From NCBI GenBank assembly GCA_052168235.1, contig JBQLZK010000114.1, positions 1 through 13,040 of the forward strand: a DNA stretch of 13,040 nucleotides. Reading direction: 5' to 3'. The stretch comes from Thainema sp. (GTDB lineage Bacteria; Cyanobacteriota; Cyanobacteriia; Phormidesmidales; Phormidesmidaceae). Each line of letters begins with the position of its first letter. Within the stretch, counting starts at the first letter, position 1. Position numbers and translations under genes: made by a program. The notes under the pieces were generated by a model, which was not told the DNA's origin, ran no database searches, and was given only the letters and a program-made list of their open reading frames with translations. This document shows positions 2,602 through 13,025 of this stretch, piece after piece.

Positions 2602-3885
2602 TTATTCCTGGCCATCCTCTTCGAGTAACCCATGTTTTCTGGCATACCGAGCATAGAAACGAGTTAAAGGTGTAGCGCTTAAACTATGAGCCACAATTGA
2701 GGCGCAAACCATGAATGAGACGATACCCCAAACCTCTTCTAAACCAGTCCGGCGTAGACAAAGCCCAGCATAGAAAATCGCTGCGACGCCAATTGGCCCA
2801 AACCATCCGACAAATGCAGCTTCTTGAATTTTTTTAAGAGGTGGAATTTGACGATAGAGCAAGAGCAATGCTGGTAAACGGCGTAGCAACAGCACGGCAA
2901 CGATCAGCAGCAAACTTTGCCAACCGAAGGCAAGCCATTGATTCCAGGGCAGCATTAGACCCAGCAGCACAAAAATCGGTAGGGTAAAGAAGCGGTTGAT
3001 TGCTTCCTGAACGTTATCTTCTTCTGAACGCTGGTTACCTCCAATCACATTGCCAAAGGCCAGTCCGGCCACAAATACGGCCAATACACCATCGGTGCCT
3101 AACAGTTTGGCGGCTCCTAAGACCGTGATAGAAAGAGCAAGGCTAAAGCCAATGAATGATGTATTTTCAATGGTTTTATTTTGTTCGGCCCACTTTAAGA
3201 AATGACCAGCGGCAAAACCTGCAATGAATCCAAACAGGACGGAACCTCCTACTTCTGCAATCACTACTGTCGTTAACCAGTGGGGCAAAACGCTGCTCAA
3301 GGTCGCGGATTCTGCGCTTTCAGCAGCTCTACTCACAATCAGGATGCACAGCAGGACAAAAGGATAGGCCAACCCGTCATTGCTGCCTGACTCGGTTGAA
3401 ATAAGATGGCGCATGCGGGCGGGAAGGTCATCCTTTGCCACTCCTCCCGTCACAATTGAGGTCGAAACGACCGGGTCTGTCGGAGTGATTGCGGCACCAA
3501 TCATCATCGATTCCCAAAACGGAAACCCCATAATCAGGTAGACCAGTAGACCACTGGCTATCCACATCAGCGGCATAACCAAACCCAGAAGTACAGCTAA
3601 AGCCTTCCAGTGTTGGCGACCATAGTGTTGAGGCAGACGGAGTGCGATACCCATTAGCCCAATGGCCATTGTTAAACGGGCAGCCTGTTCTAGAATATGT
3701 TCTCTCGATAGCCCCCACTGCATTGGATCGATCCAGTTGAGGAGCAGTGGCCCTAGCAAGATTCCGAGTGCCAAGGCCGTCAATGGATCAGACGTCCACC
3801 AGTTACGGCGGAAGTAGTCAGAGACAAGACCAAGTATAAGAACAATGCCGCCGATCGCTGTGAGTGCAATGTTAAATTGGGTCAC
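2602..3885 (-). CDS. Cation:proton antiporter, CPA1/NhaP-type (Na+/H+ exchanger family)
   Basis: 427-aa highly hydrophobic ORF with a GTG start, many predicted TM segments and CPA1 motifs ITPTDPVVS, ESGSNDG, LLRRLP and GWFGPIGVAA. Confidence 0.9.
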   Translation of the reverse strand: MTQFNIALTAIGGIVLILGLVSDYFRRNWWTSDPLTALALGILLGPLLLNWIDPMQWGLSREHILEQAARLTMAIGLMGIALRLPQHYGRQHWKALAVLLGLVMPLMWIASGLLVYLIMGFPFWESMMIGAAITPTDPVVSTSIVTGGVAKDDLPARMRHLISTESGSNDGLAYPFVLLCILIVSRAAESAESATLSSVLPHWLTTVVIAEVGGSVLFGFIAGFAAGHFLKWAEQNKTIENTSFIGFSLALSITVLGAAKLLGTDGVLAVFVAGLAFGNVIGGNQRSEEDNVQEAINRFFTLPIFVLLGLMLPWNQWLAFGWQSLLLIVAVLLLRRLPALLLLYRQIPPLKKIQEAAFVGWFGPIGVAAIFYAGLCLRRTGLEEVWGIVSFMVCASIVAHSLSATPLTRFYARYARKHGLLEEDGQE

Positions 3886-4189: not shown

Positions 4190-5800
4190 CTAGTCCATCT
4201 CGCTTTTGGACTGAGAAAAATCCAAGACATCGGGAATCTGCTCGGGGTCTTTAAATGGTTTTGAATCCTGAGTTTGAGCGCTAGCCGCTGGATTGATCGG
4301 CGAGTCAGTTGGAGGCAGAGTGTTCGCTTTCTGCAGGACTTGGTTGATTTGCTCGACCTCATCCAGTGTTTGTTCTGGATTGTCGATACTGCTTTTTTCG
4401 ACGTAGTTAATTTTCAGTTCTTCCAGCAGGTCAATTAACAGCGTTTCAAGTTCTTTCTGCGTTTGTTTTTCCTGAAGCTGCTGCTTCAACGCTTGCCGAA
4501 AGTCTTGGCTGAGCTGCTCCATCAGCATGCGGCCTTCCTGGTCAGAATAAGCATTTTTCAGGACATCATAGGTGCCTTGGGCCAGATACTCGGCTAGCTG
4601 CTCAATGGTTTCGTTGGGCAAATTGCCTATGCCAGGAAACTGCTGCACCGCGCCGTAAAAGTCTGACTGGGTAATGACTTCCGTTAAACTGTGGTGCAAC
4701 AAGGCTTCCAAGTCCGGTTGAACTTCTGGCAAAACTCGGTAAATTGACAGTTGAATCAGCCGATCGGTAATGGCGTCGATTTTATTAATATTGCTGACCT
4801 GCCGATATTGACTGGGTTCAAACAAGAATCGTGCCGCATCTCCTTGTTCAATAGAAGTCTGCGCCTGGTTAACGAGTCGCACCATGAGAAACTTGCTCAC
4901 CCGATCGGCAACGTAGGAGACGGGTTCGTGGGTCACTTGAGCCAGCACCCGCTCCATATTGAAGAGTCTGGACTGATGGAGCCGTACTGAAACGGGTAAG
5001 ACCCGCAGCCAGCGCCAATACGGCAGGAAGAAAATCAGGTCATACCAGCGGCGTAAAATAGCATCACCCCAGCTCACTTGAGGCTGACGATAGCTGCTGA
5101 TTAGAGTGCGTCCTAGTAGATCAACGGCAAACAGCGCCATGAACCAGAGATCAATCTGCCAAAACCGATCAGCGAATCGTCCCGTTTCGTCCAACATTCG
5201 CAGATAGTTGTGCTCCAGCATGGGGCGAATGGCGCGATCGAAGTAAGTCAGCTCGCTTTGCCAACCTGCTCGATTCAGATAGTCCCAACTCCAGAATTTC
5301 AGCAGTGCTTGCTTCGCTGAGATTTCACCTACGTGGGACTGGATACGCTGTTTGAGCTTAGCGTACGCACCAAACTGATTGGCTCCAAAAAAGGGATTTT
5401 CTTCTACTAACTCGATGCTTTGGGCCTGCAGATTACTAAGAATAGGCGCAATCTCCGCTGGTTGAGGCGCAAGTTGTAGAGATTGCATGTTTCCCACTTC
5501 ATGATTTGGATTAACCGTTTCAACTAGCTGATCAACAGTCGCCAAATAAAGCTGTGTATCCGGATGCAGTTCGATGCCCTTGATGGGATCGTAGGCATCT
5601 ACGACTGCGGGTGTGTACTCAAAATAAAGCGATCGCAGCGGAATATAGCTGATATTGAACAGCACCAAAACGAGCTGAATGACAGCAATAAGCGCGACAA
5701 GCTTGCTCCAAACTTGGCCAATGTGCTGCCACACGGTAGGTTGACTGGCAGAATGAGACGTACTGCGGTAAGTAGGAGTTGAAGAAGTCGAAGACTGCAT
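4190..5800 (-). CDS. Conserved hypothetical membrane protein with an ion-transport/voltage-sensor-like S2-S4 segment and a long helical C-terminal region
   Basis: Long ORF (the track opens it at 5839; the first ATG is at 5800, giving 536 aa). It has an N-terminal TM (WSKLVALIAVIQLVLVLFNISYI), then IDLWFMALFAVDLLGR, RWYDLIFFLP and RWLRVLPVSVRLHQSR. The start choice is uncertain. Confidence 0.8.
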   Translation of the reverse strand: MQSSTSSTPTYRSTSHSASQPTVWQHIGQVWSKLVALIAVIQLVLVLFNISYIPLRSLYFEYTPAVVDAYDPIKGIELHPDTQLYLATVDQLVETVNPNHEVGNMQSLQLAPQPAEIAPILSNLQAQSIELVEENPFFGANQFGAYAKLKQRIQSHVGEISAKQALLKFWSWDYLNRAGWQSELTYFDRAIRPMLEHNYLRMLDETGRFADRFWQIDLWFMALFAVDLLGRTLISSYRQPQVSWGDAILRRWYDLIFFLPYWRWLRVLPVSVRLHQSRLFNMERVLAQVTHEPVSYVADRVSKFLMVRLVNQAQTSIEQGDAARFLFEPSQYRQVSNINKIDAITDRLIQLSIYRVLPEVQPDLEALLHHSLTEVITQSDFYGAVQQFPGIGNLPNETIEQLAEYLAQGTYDVLKNAYSDQEGRMLMEQLSQDFRQALKQQLQEKQTQKELETLLIDLLEELKINYVEKSSIDNPEQTLDEVEQINQVLQKANTLPPTDSPINPAASAQTQDSKPFKDPEQIPDVLDFSQSKSEMD

Positions 5801-6042
5801 GCGATCGCGAATGGACAACCAGATGAGCAAGGTGCTCAAAAACTAGCTGCGATTCTATCGCTGCCGTTCCAAGAATACACGTATCTTAGGACTGAACTTG
5901 GCGGCGGTTTGCTATCTGGAAACCTCTCACTGTTGATCTGCTTGTGTTAAAACCTTCTCTCGCGCGATTGACGCATTTTCCCAGTGTCCCAACTAATGTA
6001 TAGGCAGATTCTGACGTGAAATGACAAGGCTAGATTCAAATA

Positions 6043-6462: not shown

Positions 6463-7212
6463 TTGATTATTCATCGTGTTGGATATTATTGGCTTGTTTT
6501 TCTAGCATTCATTCTAGGTCGCTATTTCCTCGTCGCTGGCGGGGCATTTTGGTTGTTTTATGTTTCTGACAAAATGCCTTTGCTCAAACGTATCGCCGTA
6601 CCAAAACCAAAGTGGAAACTCATTCGCCAAGATATTAGCTTATCCGTAACATCTGCTTTTCTATTTGCGCTTTTATCGGCTCTAATTATGAGCATTTATA
6701 ACGCTGGTGGCACTCGTATCTATAGCTCTATTGATACCTACGGCTGGTGGTACATGGGGTTCAGTTTTTGTGCCGTTTTAATTTTACAGGACACTTATTT
6801 TTATTTTACTCATCGGCTGCTGCATCATCCTCGCCTATTCAAATGGATGCACTATGGGCATCATCGTTCCCGCGTACCAACTCCTTGGACATCATTTGCG
6901 TTTGAACCCAGTGAGGCAATGATTCACGGCATCTTTTTTGTCAGTTTGGTGTTTTTCATCCCGCTCCATTTTGCGACTCTGATTGCGGCATTTGTCACAA
7001 TGACAATCTGGGCAATGATCACTCATTTAGGCTTTGAATTGGTTCCACCCCACTTTTCAGTAGCTGGATTACAAAAAGGACTGATTGGCCCAGTGCATCA
7101 CGCTATTCATCACCGTCGGTATCAAACGCATTTTGGGTTGTATTTCACCTTTTGGGATCGCGTACTGGGCACAACCGATCCCGCATACATCGAAAAATAT
7201 GTGAACAAATAG
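6463..7212 (+). CDS. Sterol desaturase family protein (fatty acid hydroxylase superfamily, membrane His-box diiron enzyme)
   Basis: 249 aa with a TTG start. His boxes DTYFYFTHRLLH, MHYGHH and HHAIHH, plus PTPWTSFAF and FGLYFTFWDRVLGT typical of the ERG3/ERG25-like family; several TM segments. Confidence 0.92.
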   Translation: MIIHRVGYYWLVFLAFILGRYFLVAGGAFWLFYVSDKMPLLKRIAVPKPKWKLIRQDISLSVTSAFLFALLSALIMSIYNAGGTRIYSSIDTYGWWYMGFSFCAVLILQDTYFYFTHRLLHHPRLFKWMHYGHHRSRVPTPWTSFAFEPSEAMIHGIFFVSLVFFIPLHFATLIAAFVTMTIWAMITHLGFELVPPHFSVAGLQKGLIGPVHHAIHHRRYQTHFGLYFTFWDRVLGTTDPAYIEKYVNK

Positions 7213-7218
7213 CGCCAG

Positions 7219-7965
7219 TTATTGAACTTTGCCAAATCTGCGATCGCGGTTTTGAAATGCTGTCAGTGCCTTTTGAAATTCGCTGCGATCAAAGTCAGGC
7301 CAGAGGGCATCGGTCACATAAATTTCGGCGTAGGCCATTTGCCACAGGAGAAAGTTGCTCAAGCGCATTTCGCCACTGGTGCGAATCAGCAAGTCGGGAT
7401 CGGGCAAATTGGCGGTATAAAGCTGCTGAGCGAATAGGTCATCATTAATTGCGCTGGGATCAAGCTGGCCTTGCTGTACCTGAGTTGCGATATCGCGGCA
7501 GGCTTTGATGATTTCGGCTCGTCCGCCGTAGTTCATCGCCACCGTAAACTGTACGGCGTTGTTGTTGGCAGTAGCCAACATCGCTCGCTGAGCTTCCACC
7601 TGAAGCTGTTCCGGCAGGCTGGAGATATCACCCGCAAACGAAATGCGAACGCCTTCTTCGTTCATCTCTTGCAGCTCTTTTCGTAGCAGTCGTTCGAACA
7701 GCCCCATTAGAAAACTGACTTCTTCCAGCGGTCGCCGCCAGTTTTCGGTTGAAAATGCATACACAGTTAAGGCTGGGATGCCCCAGTCCTTGCAGCAGCG
7801 CAGCAAGTCCTTCAGCGTATTGGCTCCCTGGCGATGCCCAGCGATGCGGGGTAGTCCTCGCTGCTGCGCCCAGCGACCATTGCCGTCCATAATCACCGCG
7901 ACGTGCTGCGGCAACCGCTGGCGATCAAGTTCGGCGGGCAGTTTAACTAAGAGCTTGGCAGTCAT
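7219..7965 (-). CDS. uppS: Isoprenyl transferase / cis-prenyltransferase (undecaprenyl-diphosphate synthase family), probably a paralogous copy
   Basis: Motifs [54 protein letters not shown] and RDRRFG. The ATG at 7965 (MTAKLL..., 248 aa) is preferred over 8043 because GGAGA lies 7 nt upstream of it. Confidence 0.93.
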
Positions 7966-8138
7966 CGGTGATTCTCCCGAAAGCAACGAAAAAACAGGTT
8001 TGTGAAACCATTTGGCGGTAGCGCTTCTATTAAAGGTGCCCATTTTGCCCCGGTTAAGCGCAAGACCGAAATGCAGGATTTTGGCAAAACTTTAAGTTCT
8101 GTGTCTGGATTTTACGGTTGGTGTTAAGGGGGAGGGGT

Positions 8139-8252: not shown

Positions 8253-9230
8253 CTAGCTGTCGCCGAACAGCGATCGCAACTCCTCCACCCGCATTGCCCT
8301 CTGCCATTGGCGTACCCGATTCAGCACCCAAATGAATGTCAGCGCTAGCTCTAGCTTGTGTTGCAGCTTCCAGTCGTGCCAGTGAAGAGTTCCCATCATC
8401 CGCTGGACGGTGCGATAGAGCTTCAGCAGGGACAGCGTTTTTTGCTGGCCGTAGCGGGTATCGACGATGCGATTGCCGAGGAGTCGCCAGCAGCGCTGCC
8501 AGAACGATTCGGGGTAGAGCCAGAGGCCGAATCCCCAGAATTTGGTCATGTGGTTGACTTCGTCGATTAGGATTTCGGTCAGGAGCTGATGCGTTGCGCC
8601 CGTGGTGTGCGCCATCAGCCACAGGTATAGACAGACGGCACTGTATTCCGTGGCGATGCGATGTAGACCGTGGCCATAGAGATCATCGGCAGGATGCTCG
8701 GATGACTCATAGGATTTGGCTTGGCGGAGATTGGCTACGATTTTTTCGCCCTTGAGCTGATAGTAAAGTTTGGCTAGGGCTGGGCTATGCTGCCGCTCTT
8801 CTCTTTCCCACAGTCCTAGTTCTACTAAGTCACCTTGCTCATTGACTGTACCGCCGACAAAACGGGCCATTTCAGGATGGAGCGGTTCTAGATACTGCCG
8901 ACTGGTTTGGGTATAGCCGCGAATGGGTGCTTCGGTATCCATTGCGCCCACGATAACGTTGAGGAACAGATCCAGGTCAATGTCAATTACCTGACTGGGA
9001 TGAATCTCATCCCAGCGAATTGGTTGCCAGGGTCGCGGTTGGGGATTGGCAAACTGTCGCGGTAGATCGGCCAAGCGATCGCATAAAACATCAAGGCTGA
9101 CGTAGTGGTCAATGTGCGATCGCAGCTTGGCGCAGGTCTGTCGAAACAAAGTTGGTTGCTCGGCTTGCTTTTCAGTTTGGTCAGAGTCTTGAACAGGAAC
9201 TTGAATAGAATTAATCGATAGAAAATTCAT
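8253..9230 (-). CDS. Ferritin-like diiron-carboxylate protein (acyl-ACP-desaturase-like ligand pattern)
   Basis: The pattern E...ExxH...E...ExxH appears as DTEAPI, WEREERQH, ATEYSA and DEVNH, comparable to WTAEENRH/DEKRH of soluble acyl-ACP desaturases. The ATG at 9230 has AAGGAG 10 nt upstream (325 aa); the track start at 9281 is an alternative. Confidence 0.82.
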   Translation of the reverse strand: MNFLSINSIQVPVQDSDQTEKQAEQPTLFRQTCAKLRSHIDHYVSLDVLCDRLADLPRQFANPQPRPWQPIRWDEIHPSQVIDIDLDLFLNVIVGAMDTEAPIRGYTQTSRQYLEPLHPEMARFVGGTVNEQGDLVELGLWEREERQHSPALAKLYYQLKGEKIVANLRQAKSYESSEHPADDLYGHGLHRIATEYSAVCLYLWLMAHTTGATHQLLTEILIDEVNHMTKFWGFGLWLYPESFWQRCWRLLGNRIVDTRYGQQKTLSLLKLYRTVQRMMGTLHWHDWKLQHKLELALTFIWVLNRVRQWQRAMRVEELRSLFGDS

Positions 9231-9303
9231 CAATACTGCACTCCTTATAAAAAGGGGCATGGTATGCCATGCCCGGTGCATTCAGGTGTTTTCGTTCATC
9301 CCC

Positions 9304-9438
9304 AACTTACGAAATTCGGCTCGTGGTGTCAGTCGGTTTGAGTCGGAGGTTCGCAGTTTTCCAAACGTCGGCAGAACGTCGGAAAAGGTCGGATTCAGTC
9401 GCCAATGTCGGGACAAGGTAGTGATCATGAGTTAAGCT
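9304..9438. promoter_or_regulatory. Divergent promoter region with a phased GTCGG (CCGAC) direct-repeat array flanked by two -10-like hexamers
   Basis: GTCGG occurs at 9332, 9342, 9367, 9378, 9388 and 9407, with GTCGC at 9398. TAAGTT lies on the - strand (9309-9304) and TAAGCT on the + strand (9433-9438). The repeats are seen; promoter function is inferred. Confidence 0.7.
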
Positions 9439-9523
9439 TGGTGCAATTTAGGCAGTTATTCGAATTCGCAAGCTTTGACCCTGTAGTTCTCTGAAGCAAA
9501 CATCCACAGTCGTTTTTCACGGG

Positions 9524-12037
9524 ATGGACACTGATTCTGCACTAGCGCTGGTTGATGCTCTGGTGTTTGAAAGCACTGGAGAGCATCTCAACGATTTGAA
9601 AGCTGCCATTTTCCAGCGGGTATGGCAGGGGCAAAAGTATTTAGATATTGCCGCAGACTGTGGCTACACCGAAGGCCACGTCAAGGATATCGGCTCGATT
9701 CTGTGGCGACAGCTTTCTGATGCTCTGGGTGAAAAGGTCACAAAACGCAACTGTCGCTCGGTCTTGAAACGCTACAAATCAGCCCTCAAGCAGCGGCTGG
9801 GTCAAGCGAAACGAGTTACGTCTCAGGCCATCCTGCCGATTACGTCGGGCGCTAAATCTTCACTGATGCCGCTACCGATTAACTCAACGGCTCCAGCAGA
9901 TATTGTGAAAAGTACCGCTAATCGAGGTTTTGTGGGGCGGGAAACTGCGATCGCAGATCTCCATCAGTTGGTCAGCCAGGGAGCTAAACTGATTGTCATT
10001 CAAGGTGAAGGCGGACTAGGCAAGACAACGTTGGCGCAGCAGTTTCTACAGGCGCAGTCGTTCGACCGAGTGCTGGAAGTGCTGATGGCCAAGGAAACTG
10101 ACGCTATCACCTCGGCCCATCGAGTGGTGGAAGAATGGCTGCGACAGGATTTTGACGAGGAACCAGGACAGGAGTTTGGCGTTACCCTCAGTCGGCTCAA
10201 GCGCCAGCTTCAGCAGCAGCGAGTCGGCATCCTAATTGATAACCTCGAACCGGCACTGGATGCGAACGGCTGCTTTGTACCGCAGCATCGCGGCTACGCT
10301 GAACTGCTGAGGATTCTGGCCGATCCGCAAGTGCAGGCGGTGACGTTGATTACCAGTCGCGATCGCATTTGTGAATCGGGCGTTGATCTACACCACTATC
10401 GACTGCCGGGGCTGGATTTGAGCGCTTGGCAACAGTATTTTCAATACCCTTCAGTACCTTCCGGTGAAGCAGGAAGCGTTCTTGCCGCTATGCACCAAGC
10501 TTATGCGGGAAATGCGAAGGCGATGGGTGTGCTGTATGGCTTGATTCAAGAGGATTTTGCAGGTGATATTGCGGTTTACTGGCAGGAGTATCAGGGCAGT
10601 CCGTTAGCCCATACGACGTTGCAGAACTTGGTGGTGAGCCAGATCGAGCGGCTCCTGTCTCTTGATCCAGGGGCTTATCAGCTCCTCTGTCGGCTAGGCT
10701 GCTATCGCTATCAGGAGACGCCGACTGTGCCTACGGCTGGGTTAAAGGCATTGATGTGGGATGTCGATCTGCACCAACAGCCGCGAGTAATTCAATCCTT
10801 ACGCAATCGCTCGTTGATTGAGTGCTACAAAGGCCAATACTGGCTGCATCCGGCGATTCACGCAGCAGCAGTTACGCGATTACGTGACGGTGCTGATTAC
10901 GAAGCAGCCCATCGTCGAGCCGCCGCGTTTTGGAGTCAATCGGTGCAGCGCATTCAGTCGGTGCGGGATGCGCTGCAAGCACTGGAAGCTTATTACCACC
11001 ATGTTGCGATTCAGGATTTTGAAGCTGCTGCTGCCGTATTACTCCGCAGTCGCTTGAATCAGTGGCAGCAGTTCTTGCCGCTGGGCAGTACCCTTTACCG
11101 GATGGGCTTTCTGCATCCCGTGGTGGATGCCATTGAGCAGGTGTTGCCCCATCTGCAAGCGACGCCGAATCAGGCAGAACTCTGCAATATTCTAGGCGAC
11201 TTGTACTGGATTACAGGCTGCATTACAGAAGCGATTCAGCAACAGCAACATGCGATCGCAACGGCTAAAACCTGTCTACAAAATGCCGCCAATGATCATC
11301 AGATTTACTACTTAACAATGATAGCTGTGGATTCGCAGCTCAGTATTGGTCTATATTGTGTCGATCGATGGGATTTGGCAACCGCGCAGCAGTATTTTCA
11401 AACGGTGATCGATCAGGCAACTTGTACGCCTCATCATCCCTGGGCTGAGAAAGCATCGGTTTGCCTTGCCCTGGTTTATACACACCAACAGCAGTTCGAG
11501 CAGGCGAAACCGTTGACTGATGAAGTTTATAGCCGAATTGCTAGCAGTCCATTGACAGATTGCAGCGGGCGCTTTGCCTACTTCATCCAGATGCTGGCTC
11601 AGGTTTATAGTTACTTAGGCGAATATAACCAGGCTCAAGAACTTTACGATAGTGCGATCGCCGCCGCCACTGAAAGCCACTATCTCCAGGTCAGAGGCCA
11701 AGCCCTAAACGGATTAGCGGTATTGCATCGTCTTCAGGGGAATTGCGATCGCGCATTAGCCCATCATGCCGAGGCGGTTGAAATCTTAGAAATGATCGAT
11801 GCCAAGTGTGATTTAGCCAATGCGCTGTTTCAACAAGGGATTACCTATAAAACTCAGGGAAATCTCTCTCAAGCACTGCAGAATGTTGGGCGTGCCATCC
11901 AGCTTTTCCGCGCAATTGATGCACCAAATCAAGTGCAGCGGGTGCAGTATCAATTTGATTGCCATACCAGTTCCCTAAACTGTGACTACTCATCAAGCTC
12001 TCTTACCCAGCACCTAACGCAATCAGTATCTAAATGA
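9524..12037 (+). CDS. STAND-class NTPase: N-terminal HTH-like domain + NB-ARC-like ATPase + C-terminal TPR repeats; probable signal-transducing transcriptional regulator
   Basis: 837 aa. The N-terminal ~80 aa (HLNDL...WQGQKYLDIA...GYTEGHVKDIGSILWRQLSDALGEKVTKRN) match the HTH-like module common on cyanobacterial NB-ARC proteins. FVGRE, Walker A GEGGLGKT, Walker B ILIDNLE, sensor LITSR and MHD-equivalent YWLHP follow, then TPR-like repeats (e.g. ALNGLAVLHRLQGNCDRALAHHAEAVEI). Confidence 0.88.
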   Translation: MDTDSALALVDALVFESTGEHLNDLKAAIFQRVWQGQKYLDIAADCGYTEGHVKDIGSILWRQLSDALGEKVTKRNCRSVLKRYKSALKQRLGQAKRVTSQAILPITSGAKSSLMPLPINSTAPADIVKSTANRGFVGRETAIADLHQLVSQGAKLIVIQGEGGLGKTTLAQQFLQAQSFDRVLEVLMAKETDAITSAHRVVEEWLRQDFDEEPGQEFGVTLSRLKRQLQQQRVGILIDNLEPALDANGCFVPQHRGYAELLRILADPQVQAVTLITSRDRICESGVDLHHYRLPGLDLSAWQQYFQYPSVPSGEAGSVLAAMHQAYAGNAKAMGVLYGLIQEDFAGDIAVYWQEYQGSPLAHTTLQNLVVSQIERLLSLDPGAYQLLCRLGCYRYQETPTVPTAGLKALMWDVDLHQQPRVIQSLRNRSLIECYKGQYWLHPAIHAAAVTRLRDGADYEAAHRRAAAFWSQSVQRIQSVRDALQALEAYYHHVAIQDFEAAAAVLLRSRLNQWQQFLPLGSTLYRMGFLHPVVDAIEQVLPHLQATPNQAELCNILGDLYWITGCITEAIQQQQHAIATAKTCLQNAANDHQIYYLTMIAVDSQLSIGLYCVDRWDLATAQQYFQTVIDQATCTPHHPWAEKASVCLALVYTHQQQFEQAKPLTDEVYSRIASSPLTDCSGRFAYFIQMLAQVYSYLGEYNQAQELYDSAIAAATESHYLQVRGQALNGLAVLHRLQGNCDRALAHHAEAVEILEMIDAKCDLANALFQQGITYKTQGNLSQALQNVGRAIQLFRAIDAPNQVQRVQYQFDCHTSSLNCDYSSSSLTQHLTQSVSK

Positions 12038-12320: not shown

Positions 12321-12475
12321 TTGGGTGTTGCTTTGAAATTGCTTGGCGAACTGGTGTTTGCTCTCTTCGAATTAATACTAAAATAGCAGGCTGCTTGGGC
12401 TTGCCGATGTAGAGAAGCCCCTAGTGCTAAGTAACTATAGATCCAGTATTCACGGACATCCGTGGCTTCGTACAA
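12321..12475 (-). pseudogene. Frameshifted C-terminal fragment of a Uma2 (DUF820) family endonuclease gene
   Basis: Three consecutive minus-strand frames give LYEATDVREYWIYSYLALG / YIGKPKQPAILV / FEESKHQFAKQFQSNTQ. This matches, from memory, the cyanobacterial Uma2 C-terminal pattern YE..G..EYWIVDYL.LG....IG.PKQP...VY.L.EGEY....QF.G. Confidence 0.72.
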
Positions 12476-12557
12476 AGAATTTAAACCTATTTGTGCTTTG
12501 AAGTTCAAACAGAGCTATGTTGAGCTTATCTATCTAAGAATTACCATTAGTTCTGAC

Positions 12558-13025
12558 ATGAGGAATTATCGCTTACTACGTCGTGTTATCTTCGTGGTCG
12601 TTGGAACCTTGCTATTTGAACTATATACTGGCGAACCTGCCAGGGCACAGCAAGATTTCTATATTGGTTTTGCACAAGTACCAACATCTAATCCTGGAAT
12701 TAGCAGCGAAGATGATGAAACTTCTCCACTCGAAGATATGGAGTCTGGCACACTCCAAGACTCTTCTCTCAATGAAACTTTACCTTCGGAAACTGAAATA
12801 GTCAGTACTGACGTTCTTGAAATGAAACGCTGGGATGTTTTAACGACTTTCATTGTAACGCTACCAGCGATCATTTCGGCTCTCACTGGTTTAGTAGCTA
12901 CGATACAGGTTCGAAAATTTTTGAGCAATACCGAAGGTGAAGAATCTAATGGTCAGATTCAATGGCAGTTATTAATTGCTGTAGGTTTTGTAATTGCTCA
13001 ACCCAGTAGCCAATCGGACTGCTGA
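12558..13025 (+). CDS. Hypothetical exported/membrane protein (signal peptide, acidic linker, 1-2 TM helices); possibly C-terminally truncated
   Basis: The ATG at 12558 gives MRNYRLLRRVIFVVVGTLLFELYTGEPARA-QQ (basic, hydrophobic, AxA). A D/E/S-rich stretch follows, then TM VLTTFIVTLPAIISALTGLVATIQV + RK; 155 aa. The track start at 12462 is GTG and overlaps the Uma2 remnant. Confidence 0.6.
   Translation: MRNYRLLRRVIFVVVGTLLFELYTGEPARAQQDFYIGFAQVPTSNPGISSEDDETSPLEDMESGTLQDSSLNETLPSETEIVSTDVLEMKRWDVLTTFIVTLPAIISALTGLVATIQVRKFLSNTEGEESNGQIQWQLLIAVGFVIAQPSSQSDC

Follow-up and report, generated by a model that had tools for sequence, protein, structure and literature searches.

A conserved array of GTCGG repeats is the likely operator of a neighbouring HTH-STAND-TPR protein in cyanobacteria

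The region between a ferritin-like gene and the divergent gene for an HTH-STAND-TPR protein holds an array of GTCGG repeats that, judged by comparison of many genome sequences, is a real and widely conserved operator-like control element of cyanobacteria and not a chance cluster. Most likely, the neighbouring immune-receptor-like ATPase binds these repeats and would then act as a transcription activator of lipid and cell-envelope genes. The array lies in a 13,040-nucleotide stretch of DNA, referred to here as the window, and its features are collected in Table 1.

Table 1. Features of the repeat array, its two predicted promoters and the genes on either side, with positions in the window.
Feature	Position	Strand	Remarks
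Second copy of the cis-prenyltransferase gene uppS	7219..8043	-	The boxed promoter's most constant target
Ferritin-like diiron-carboxylate protein (R2lox/ADO/acyl-ACP-desaturase-like fold)	8253..9230	-	Probable start 9230; longest ORF from 9281
Hairpin and T-run in the 5' leader of the ferritin-like gene	9255..9274	-	Resembles a dispersed palindromic repeat of the genome
-10 hexamer TAAGTT of the ferritin-like/uppS promoter	9304..9309	-	Conserved spacing; predicted TSS near 9297
-35-like hexamer CTGACA	9327..9332	-	17-nt spacer to the -10; box 1 overlaps by 1 bp
Left conserved pair GTCGG-N5-GTCGG	9332..9346	+	Box 1 at about -39..-35 and box 2 at -49..-45 of the minus-strand promoter
Extra GTCGG box	9367..9371	+	Same place in the same-genus relative and L043; variable elsewhere among orthologues
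Right conserved A-linked box pair GTCGGAAAAGGTCGG	9378..9392	+	The + strand -10 follows after 40 nt
GTCGC and last GTCGG box	9398..9411	+	Genus-level extras, present in L001; no conserved distance elsewhere
-10 hexamer TAAGCT of the STAND promoter	9433..9438	+	Conserved spacing to the A-linked box; predicted TSS near 9445
HTH-STAND(NB-ARC)-TPR protein, 837 aa	9524..12037	+	Walker A at 161, Walker B at 236
N-terminal five-helix HTH, LuxR/NarL/sigma-4-like	9524..9799	+	Recognition helix from T50-EGHVKD, ~9671-9691

We re-read the array in the window and found its boxes, their spacings and both TAnnnT hexamers where the original prediction had placed them. GTCGG starts at 9332, 9342, 9367, 9378, 9388 and 9407 and GTCGC at 9398, all on the + strand, with TAAGTT (-, 9309-9304) 22 nt from the box at 9332 and TAAGCT (+, 9433-9438) 21 nt past position 9411. 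The prediction had also argued from the rarity of such a cluster. The array is the sole cluster with at least five GTCGG copies in 80 bp in the 7.54-Mb genome, but 111 of the 512 canonical 5-mers form a six-copy cluster in 80 bp somewhere in the same genome, so the single-genome statistic by itself proves little. Across the whole window, GTCGG occurs 20 times versus 15.9 expected. A search of Rfam returned no match for the array. The same-genus relative (L001) has 132 extra bases between the STAND -10 hexamer and the start codon; its boxes and both -10 hexamers keep unchanged spacing.

For the comparison of orthologous upstream regions, we gathered 69 STAND loci, removed four duplicates (L032, L041, L050 and L066) and two truncated loci (L052 and L063), and split the remainder into 45 loci with a ferritin-like gene or uppS alongside and 18 without. 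Boxes were counted in the 350 nt upstream of the STAND gene. GTCGG occurs at the 45 linked loci 125 times on the same strand versus 4 times on the opposite strand (shuffled sequences give a mean of 20.6 and a maximum of 32); Nodosilinea-type kin make up about half of these loci, so that the set is phylogenetically clumped and the counts are not independent. At least two copies are present at 39 of the 45, versus a shuffle mean of 3.5, and the 18 loci without a linked target hold 11 same-strand and 2 opposite-strand copies. The boxes expected in orthologous intergenic regions are thus present and conserved, and because of this conservation and strand bias in the 45 upstream regions we do not regard the array as a product of chance. 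The proposed one-turn periodicity is borne out as well, since 10-bp spacing dominates and exact pairs peak at 10 nt across orthologues; relaxed boxes add peaks at 33-34, 43-44 and 53-54 nt. The suggested offset of about 2.4 turns between the two runs, however, is atypical: in most orthologues the blocks are 33-34 and 43-44 nt apart, and the window's own offsets are 25, 36 and 46 nt, the latter two being out of phase with the usual values. At six Nostocales loci the genes are separated by 1.6-3.6 kb, and both promoters keep their boxes.

The left conserved pair is built into a predicted promoter that faces the ferritin-like gene and uppS. The left block, GTCAGTCGG-N5-GTCGG, is present in 37 of the 45 linked loci, and five re-examined loci without the standard block have an GTCCGTCTG variant at the same spacing. 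The GTCAG part of the -35-like hexamer is nearly invariant in the 37-locus consensus, and an A...TA hexamer lies 18-19 nt from this GTCAG in 37 of 37 block-bearing loci, a degree of conservation that upholds the -10 element proposed to face the ferritin-like gene. Read on the minus strand, CTGACA (five of the six positions of the -35 consensus), a gap of 17-18 nt and TAnnnT make up a predicted sigma-70-type promoter of conserved architecture; the original prediction had not mentioned the -35-like hexamer. This assignment rests on conservation because a generic sigma-70 scan of 9150-9600 detected no promoter. Counted from the conserved -10, with the TSS predicted, box 1 lies at -39..-35 or -40..-36 in all 37 loci. 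Terminal boxes had been placed near the -35 of both promoters; for box 1, at about -39..-35, this is confirmed, but for the right-hand box at 9407 it holds within the genus only. The hairpin in the leader of the ferritin-like gene, immediately upstream of the ribosome site, is shared with the same-genus relative and could attenuate the ferritin-like transcript. Sequence from a relative that is ~90% identical covers all three genes in three biofilm RNA libraries of one study, and because the contigs also cross the operator, these reads say nothing about the TSS or about expression.

On the side of the STAND gene, a GTC(T/G)GAAAAAGTCGG-type pair is present in most orthologues. A TA(A/G)(A/G)(C/G)T-type hexamer follows the A-linked box (at 9388 in the window) by 38-41 nt in 29 of 44 loci and by 34 nt in 9 of 44, and this conserved distance supports TAAGCT as the STAND-facing -10 that had been proposed. 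Two loci (L042 and L044) have a box pair 8 nt before the STAND -10. The idea that the STAND protein controls its own gene did not prove general. In genomes chosen because a target promoter carries boxes, 16 of 18 STAND genes lack a box pair in the upstream sequence displayed (one upstream region being partly masked and one short). Because only 2 of the 18 show such a pair, autoregulation is optional; to judge by where boxes are found, the STAND gene would be controlled from the right pair at divergent loci and in Nostocales, and can do without this control.

Across 401 genomes, GTCAGTCGG-N5-GTCGG has 78 matches in 67 genomes, and 70 of these matches were inspected. A -10 hexamer stands at 18-19 nt in 51 of the 70. 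Downstream of these 51 lies the ferritin-like gene in 26 cases, uppS in 12, an ORF and then uppS in 1, a membrane-protein pair in 7, exosortase O in 4 and no target in 1, where the classes of ORF-then-uppS, membrane pair and exosortase O were defined from the pattern matches themselves. Of the 19 inspected matches without a -10, 18 have no such gene. When the genes are unlinked, the boxes go with the target promoter. They stand directly before uppS, with the ferritin-like gene absent at the locus, in several lineages (L051, L053, L055, L117, L312, L326-L328 and L331). The membrane pair under a boxed promoter (L107:555-1948, L109, L110, L123, L314, L316 and L318) occurs in one cyanobacterial family; its proteins, ~230 aa each, match no Pfam or NCBIfam family, and the homologue in the window's genome (L267) lacks a boxed promoter. 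Exosortase O (TIGR04489) is under a boxed promoter at L074, L112, L114 and L320, and at L114 a TIGR02921-like PEP-CTERM gene comes after it. A search of the window's genome for exosortase O gave no match, and the search missed its positive control as well. The full box architecture occurs in the window's genome at the present locus only; a pattern match on C15, considered as a second regulon site, lies inside an ORF and was rejected. When the pattern was reduced to the -10 and GTCAGTCGG with a gap of 17-18 nt (30 loci in the 401 genomes), a reversed control matched about equally often.

The ferritin-like protein has the E, ExxH, E, (D)ExxH four-helix core of diiron-carboxylate oxidases, with E99, E143-H147, E194 and D222-E223-H226 (numbering from 9227) invariant in 48 sequences. 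In VIA comparisons its fold aligns with 6d9f (Z 14.7, rmsd 4.1, 233 aligned) and with R2lox (Z 14.1), and a PDB sequence search returned no match, nor did a search of plasmids. AAGGAG lies 10 nt upstream of its probable start. The neighbouring uppS is additional to a housekeeping uppS on another contig, which adjoins cdaA. In 39 loci taken with flanks of up to 5 kb, the STAND gene is accompanied by the ferritin-like gene 28 times and by uppS 26 times; Chlorogloeopsis fritschii PCC 6912 (L008) carries the complete module. The module copies of uppS separate from the housekeeping copies with 85/88 support. A shift in chain length was considered and rejected, as the 25 module and 11 housekeeping copies are told apart by a single column (V/A). 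Because the module uppS shows no telling residue change, its sequence makes an increase in dose likelier than a new product.

The STAND protein matches NB-ARC (E 1.8e-7) and TPR_12 (E 6.6e-19). GEGG(L/I)GKTT, (I/L)(L/V)(I/V)DN(L/F)E and TSRD are found in 8 of 8 orthologues shown, with Walker A and Walker B intact. NB-ARC proteins usually carry a GxP motif; in its place, within residues 327-335 of the STAND protein, all 8 orthologues shown have GNAKA. Modelling of residues 1-92 gives an all-helical five-helix domain without a wing (pLDDT 95.8). Its top VIA matches are RcsB, VqmA and NarL (Z 7.6, rmsd 2.0-2.8, 63-68 aligned), which may mean a common arrangement only, and Foldseek gave sigma-4 matches with E above 0.05. 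All 18 matches of a search with residues 1-95, including relatives that are 95-99% identical, carry the precomputed annotation PF26355, a family named 'vWA-MoxR associated protein N-terminal HTH'; a Pfam scan of the window protein itself gave no PF26355 match. The sole strong PDB sequence match for the HTH profile, 5i8l (a repeat domain named lysozyme), was judged unrelated. Elsewhere, the STAND-TPR body occurs with several unrelated N-terminal domains (L013, L016, L064, L068 and L069), which amounts to effector swapping. Two Microcoleus STAND-TPR genes with a different N-terminal domain (L014 and L015) have three or four 13-nt TAGCTCA-type repeats upstream, which suggests that a second HTH type may follow the same box logic.

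Occurrence of the boxes goes together with the recognition helix of the STAND protein. Of 62 STAND loci, 50 have a helix reading (T/S)EGH(V/I/A)KD, and 44 of these carry a box pair; none of the 12 with a different N-terminal domain or helix does. The six exceptions comprise four that are unlinked from a target and two with a variant second box. Of 20 genomes picked for boxed target promoters, 18 encode a TEGHxKD STAND protein, mostly unlinked. In one genome (G059) the STAND body carries a different N-terminal domain, the ferritin-like gene has no boxes, and there is only one uppS. Boxed promoters are kept in three genomes in which no TEGHxKD STAND protein was found (G284, G016 and G018; 99% complete, fragmented into 210-250 contigs), and in G016 the ferritin-like gene carries two stops. 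A further fragmented assembly (G077) has a boxed promoter but only a 190-aa HTH ORF, a truncated regulator. We consider it very probable that the boxes are bound by the HTH of the adjacent STAND protein; as originally proposed, this HTH is the best candidate for their reader, given the contrast between the two groups of loci and the boxes of paralogues, which appear to track the helix.

These paralogues were collected by an HTH profile search, which gave 96 matches in 27 of 41 genomes. We recovered 97 distinct HTH genes, 90 of them with 330 nt of upstream sequence. Chains of three copies of a 5-mer at 9-12 nt spacing precede 17 of the 90, versus 96 of 2217 control promoters and 0.8 in shuffles, and off-phase spacings give 2 and 0. 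Likewise, A-linked one-turn pairs precede 26 of 71 non-orthologous, de-duplicated genes, versus 5 on the reverse strand and 48 of 600 controls (8%). ELGYVKQ helices (as in L179 and L191) are found with GGTTCG or GTTCG, EHLRN with TACAG, and TEGYLRD and TPEYLQD with CTCAG, and EGHxKD paralogues have GACGG or GTCGG upstream. Column-by-column covariation of residues and boxes was not significant (best 0.80, permutation 95% 1.08). A helix-versus-rest test of 27 genes, run later, found that genes with similar helices tend to have similar boxes once the rest of the domain is corrected for (partial rho 0.175, permutation p 0.011), which lends modest support to a helix-to-box relation, the statistics ignoring phylogeny. 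On balance, we lean towards viewing the PF26355 NB-ARC/WD40/TPR paralogues as a family of one-component factors, each with a helix-encoded box. Three paralogous HTH genes of the window's genome have, upstream, TTAGCACTA twice at 13 nt (L102, on C13), GTCAG and GTCAT pairs at 10 nt (L103, on C64) and a CGTCA pair at 10 nt (L101, on C25).

By analogy with MalT, we think it probable that the adjacent HTH-STAND-TPR protein uses the array as its operator and acts as a MalT-like, ligand-gated class II activator. In MalT, inducer binding to a TPR-type sensor leads to multimerisation, cooperative binding to boxes and recruitment of polymerase (PMC4381067). Here, a small ligand would bind the TPR sensor of the STAND protein, and the NTPase domain would then oligomerise head to tail, so that several LuxR-type HTHs with the helix TEGHxKD line up along a single face of the DNA, each at its own box, one per turn. 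The promoter-proximal protomer at box 1 would recruit RNA polymerase to drive the ferritin-like gene and the dedicated second uppS or, in some lineages, exosortase O and a PEP-CTERM substrate or the membrane-protein pair. Other members of the same HTH family would read other one-turn boxes. The output is probably an envelope and lipid programme of more polyprenyl carrier, diiron lipid oxidation and surface-protein anchoring. A further proposal, which we regard as quite unlikely, is a loop of signal synthase and receptor, luxI/luxR-like but made from NLR-like parts, in which a lipid or prenyl ligand for the TPR sensor would be the product of the diiron oxidase and the extra prenyltransferase. 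That ligand would drive oligomerisation on the boxes, and with it its own synthesis and the envelope programme, in mat-forming cyanobacteria.

The same HTH might instead bind the boxes as a repressor, with box 1 over the -35 occluding sigma region 4 until the ligand releases it. The near-consensus CTGACA with its 17-18 nt spacer is a promoter that may not need an activator, boxed promoters persist in the three genomes where no regulator was found, and the pair at L042 and L044 stands very close to the STAND -10. Nevertheless, the conserved boxes extend from the -35 upstream and never lie between the -35 and the start, which is the geometry typical of activators, and STAND oligomers form in the induced state (PMC4381067). 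We judge repression unlikely, and activation much the more probable of the two modes. The three genomes with boxes and no regulator found would also fit a different reader, such as an alternative sigma factor or an unlinked regulator, with the STAND gene a mere neighbour or co-regulated target. Most unlinked STAND genes are without boxes, and the top Foldseek matches imply that a sigma-4-like reader would be all that the boxes need. Such a reader is decidedly improbable in light of the absence of box pairs from loci with another N-terminus or helix, the loss of the boxes together with this HTH in G059, and the different boxes, tracking their helix, at paralogous HTH genes.

A cluster arisen by chance, a dispersed repeat or an element whose role is purely structural, by A-tract bending, would be in keeping with the many 5-mers that cluster alike in this genome and with the A-tract linker in the right pair. 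This reading is already largely refuted and, in our estimate, very remote: the strand bias and the fixed -10 spacing extend across many families, the left-pair linkers are variable, and the genome has one architecture-complete copy, which matches nothing in Rfam.

Activation through an oligomer that reads one-turn boxes has precedents, among which MalT of Escherichia coli is the closest in its workings. The proximal box of MalT lies near -38; the present array shares with the MalT arrays the use of short asymmetric boxes, with a proximal box centred near -37/-38 of the predicted promoter. A STAND NTPase and a TPR-type sensor are likewise shared (PMC4381067), and the fold of the HTH is consistent, on middling scores, with the LuxR type of the MalT DNA-binding domain. 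The HTH is C-terminal in MalT, whereas here it is N-terminal (residues 1-92), and the present boxes are 5-mer direct repeats one turn apart, all on one strand. The TPR_MalT model scores 30.5 bits on the window's STAND protein, below its cut-off of 45. LAL proteins, the large ATP-binding regulators of the LuxR family, also combine an ATPase with a LuxR-type HTH and activate biosynthetic genes, but have the reversed domain order, other boxes and a home in another phylum. The SARP/AfsR activators of actinomycetes bind direct repeats one helical turn apart upstream of the -35, as the present boxes are arranged just upstream of the -35, and AfsR has NB-ARC and TPR. The SARP likeness drawn in the original prediction nonetheless fails structurally, for the model is all-helical and has neither an OmpR winged HTH nor a BTAD domain; the NCBIfam AfsR match covers the TPR region only (33 bits versus a cut-off of 1430). 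The VMAP ternary systems share PF26355, as annotated on near-identical relatives of the window protein, and the passages of their description available to us give no DNA target for this domain (PMC7159879). A VMAP ternary system needs vWA and MoxR neighbours, of which there are none among the window's ORFs, whereas here the HTH appears to be the effector of a stand-alone STAND regulator. The module would, on these comparisons, be MalT-like in its working but outside the MalT/LAL (by HTH position), SARP and VMAP ternary classes. We found no description of the operator, the module or a PF26355 DNA target in the open literature, subscription papers and supplements being beyond its scope.

If the operator assignment is true, this STAND protein is the first of its large family with a predicted binding site. 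Cyanobacterial HTH-STAND proteins have so far been annotated merely as NB-ARC, TPR or WD40 proteins or grouped with conflict systems, and the present locus gives one of them a precise predicted operator, a promoter geometry and a small regulon. Its paralogues suggest a readable helix-to-box code for the HTH family, by which proteins without an assigned role would become testable transcription factors. The locus would also supply a second model, beside MalT, for STAND oligomers that read DNA, one in which the DNA-binding domain sits at the other terminus.

Outside the module, the window holds a fatty-acid hydroxylase/sterol desaturase gene (6463-7212, +) that is convergent with uppS; it was rejected as a part of the module, being found only in the window and in the same-genus relative. 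Two ORFs, 4190-5839 (-; 549 aa) and 12462-13025 (+; 187 aa), have no Pfam match, and further left lie an alpha-amylase gene (634-2283) and a Na+/H+ exchanger gene (2602-3885).
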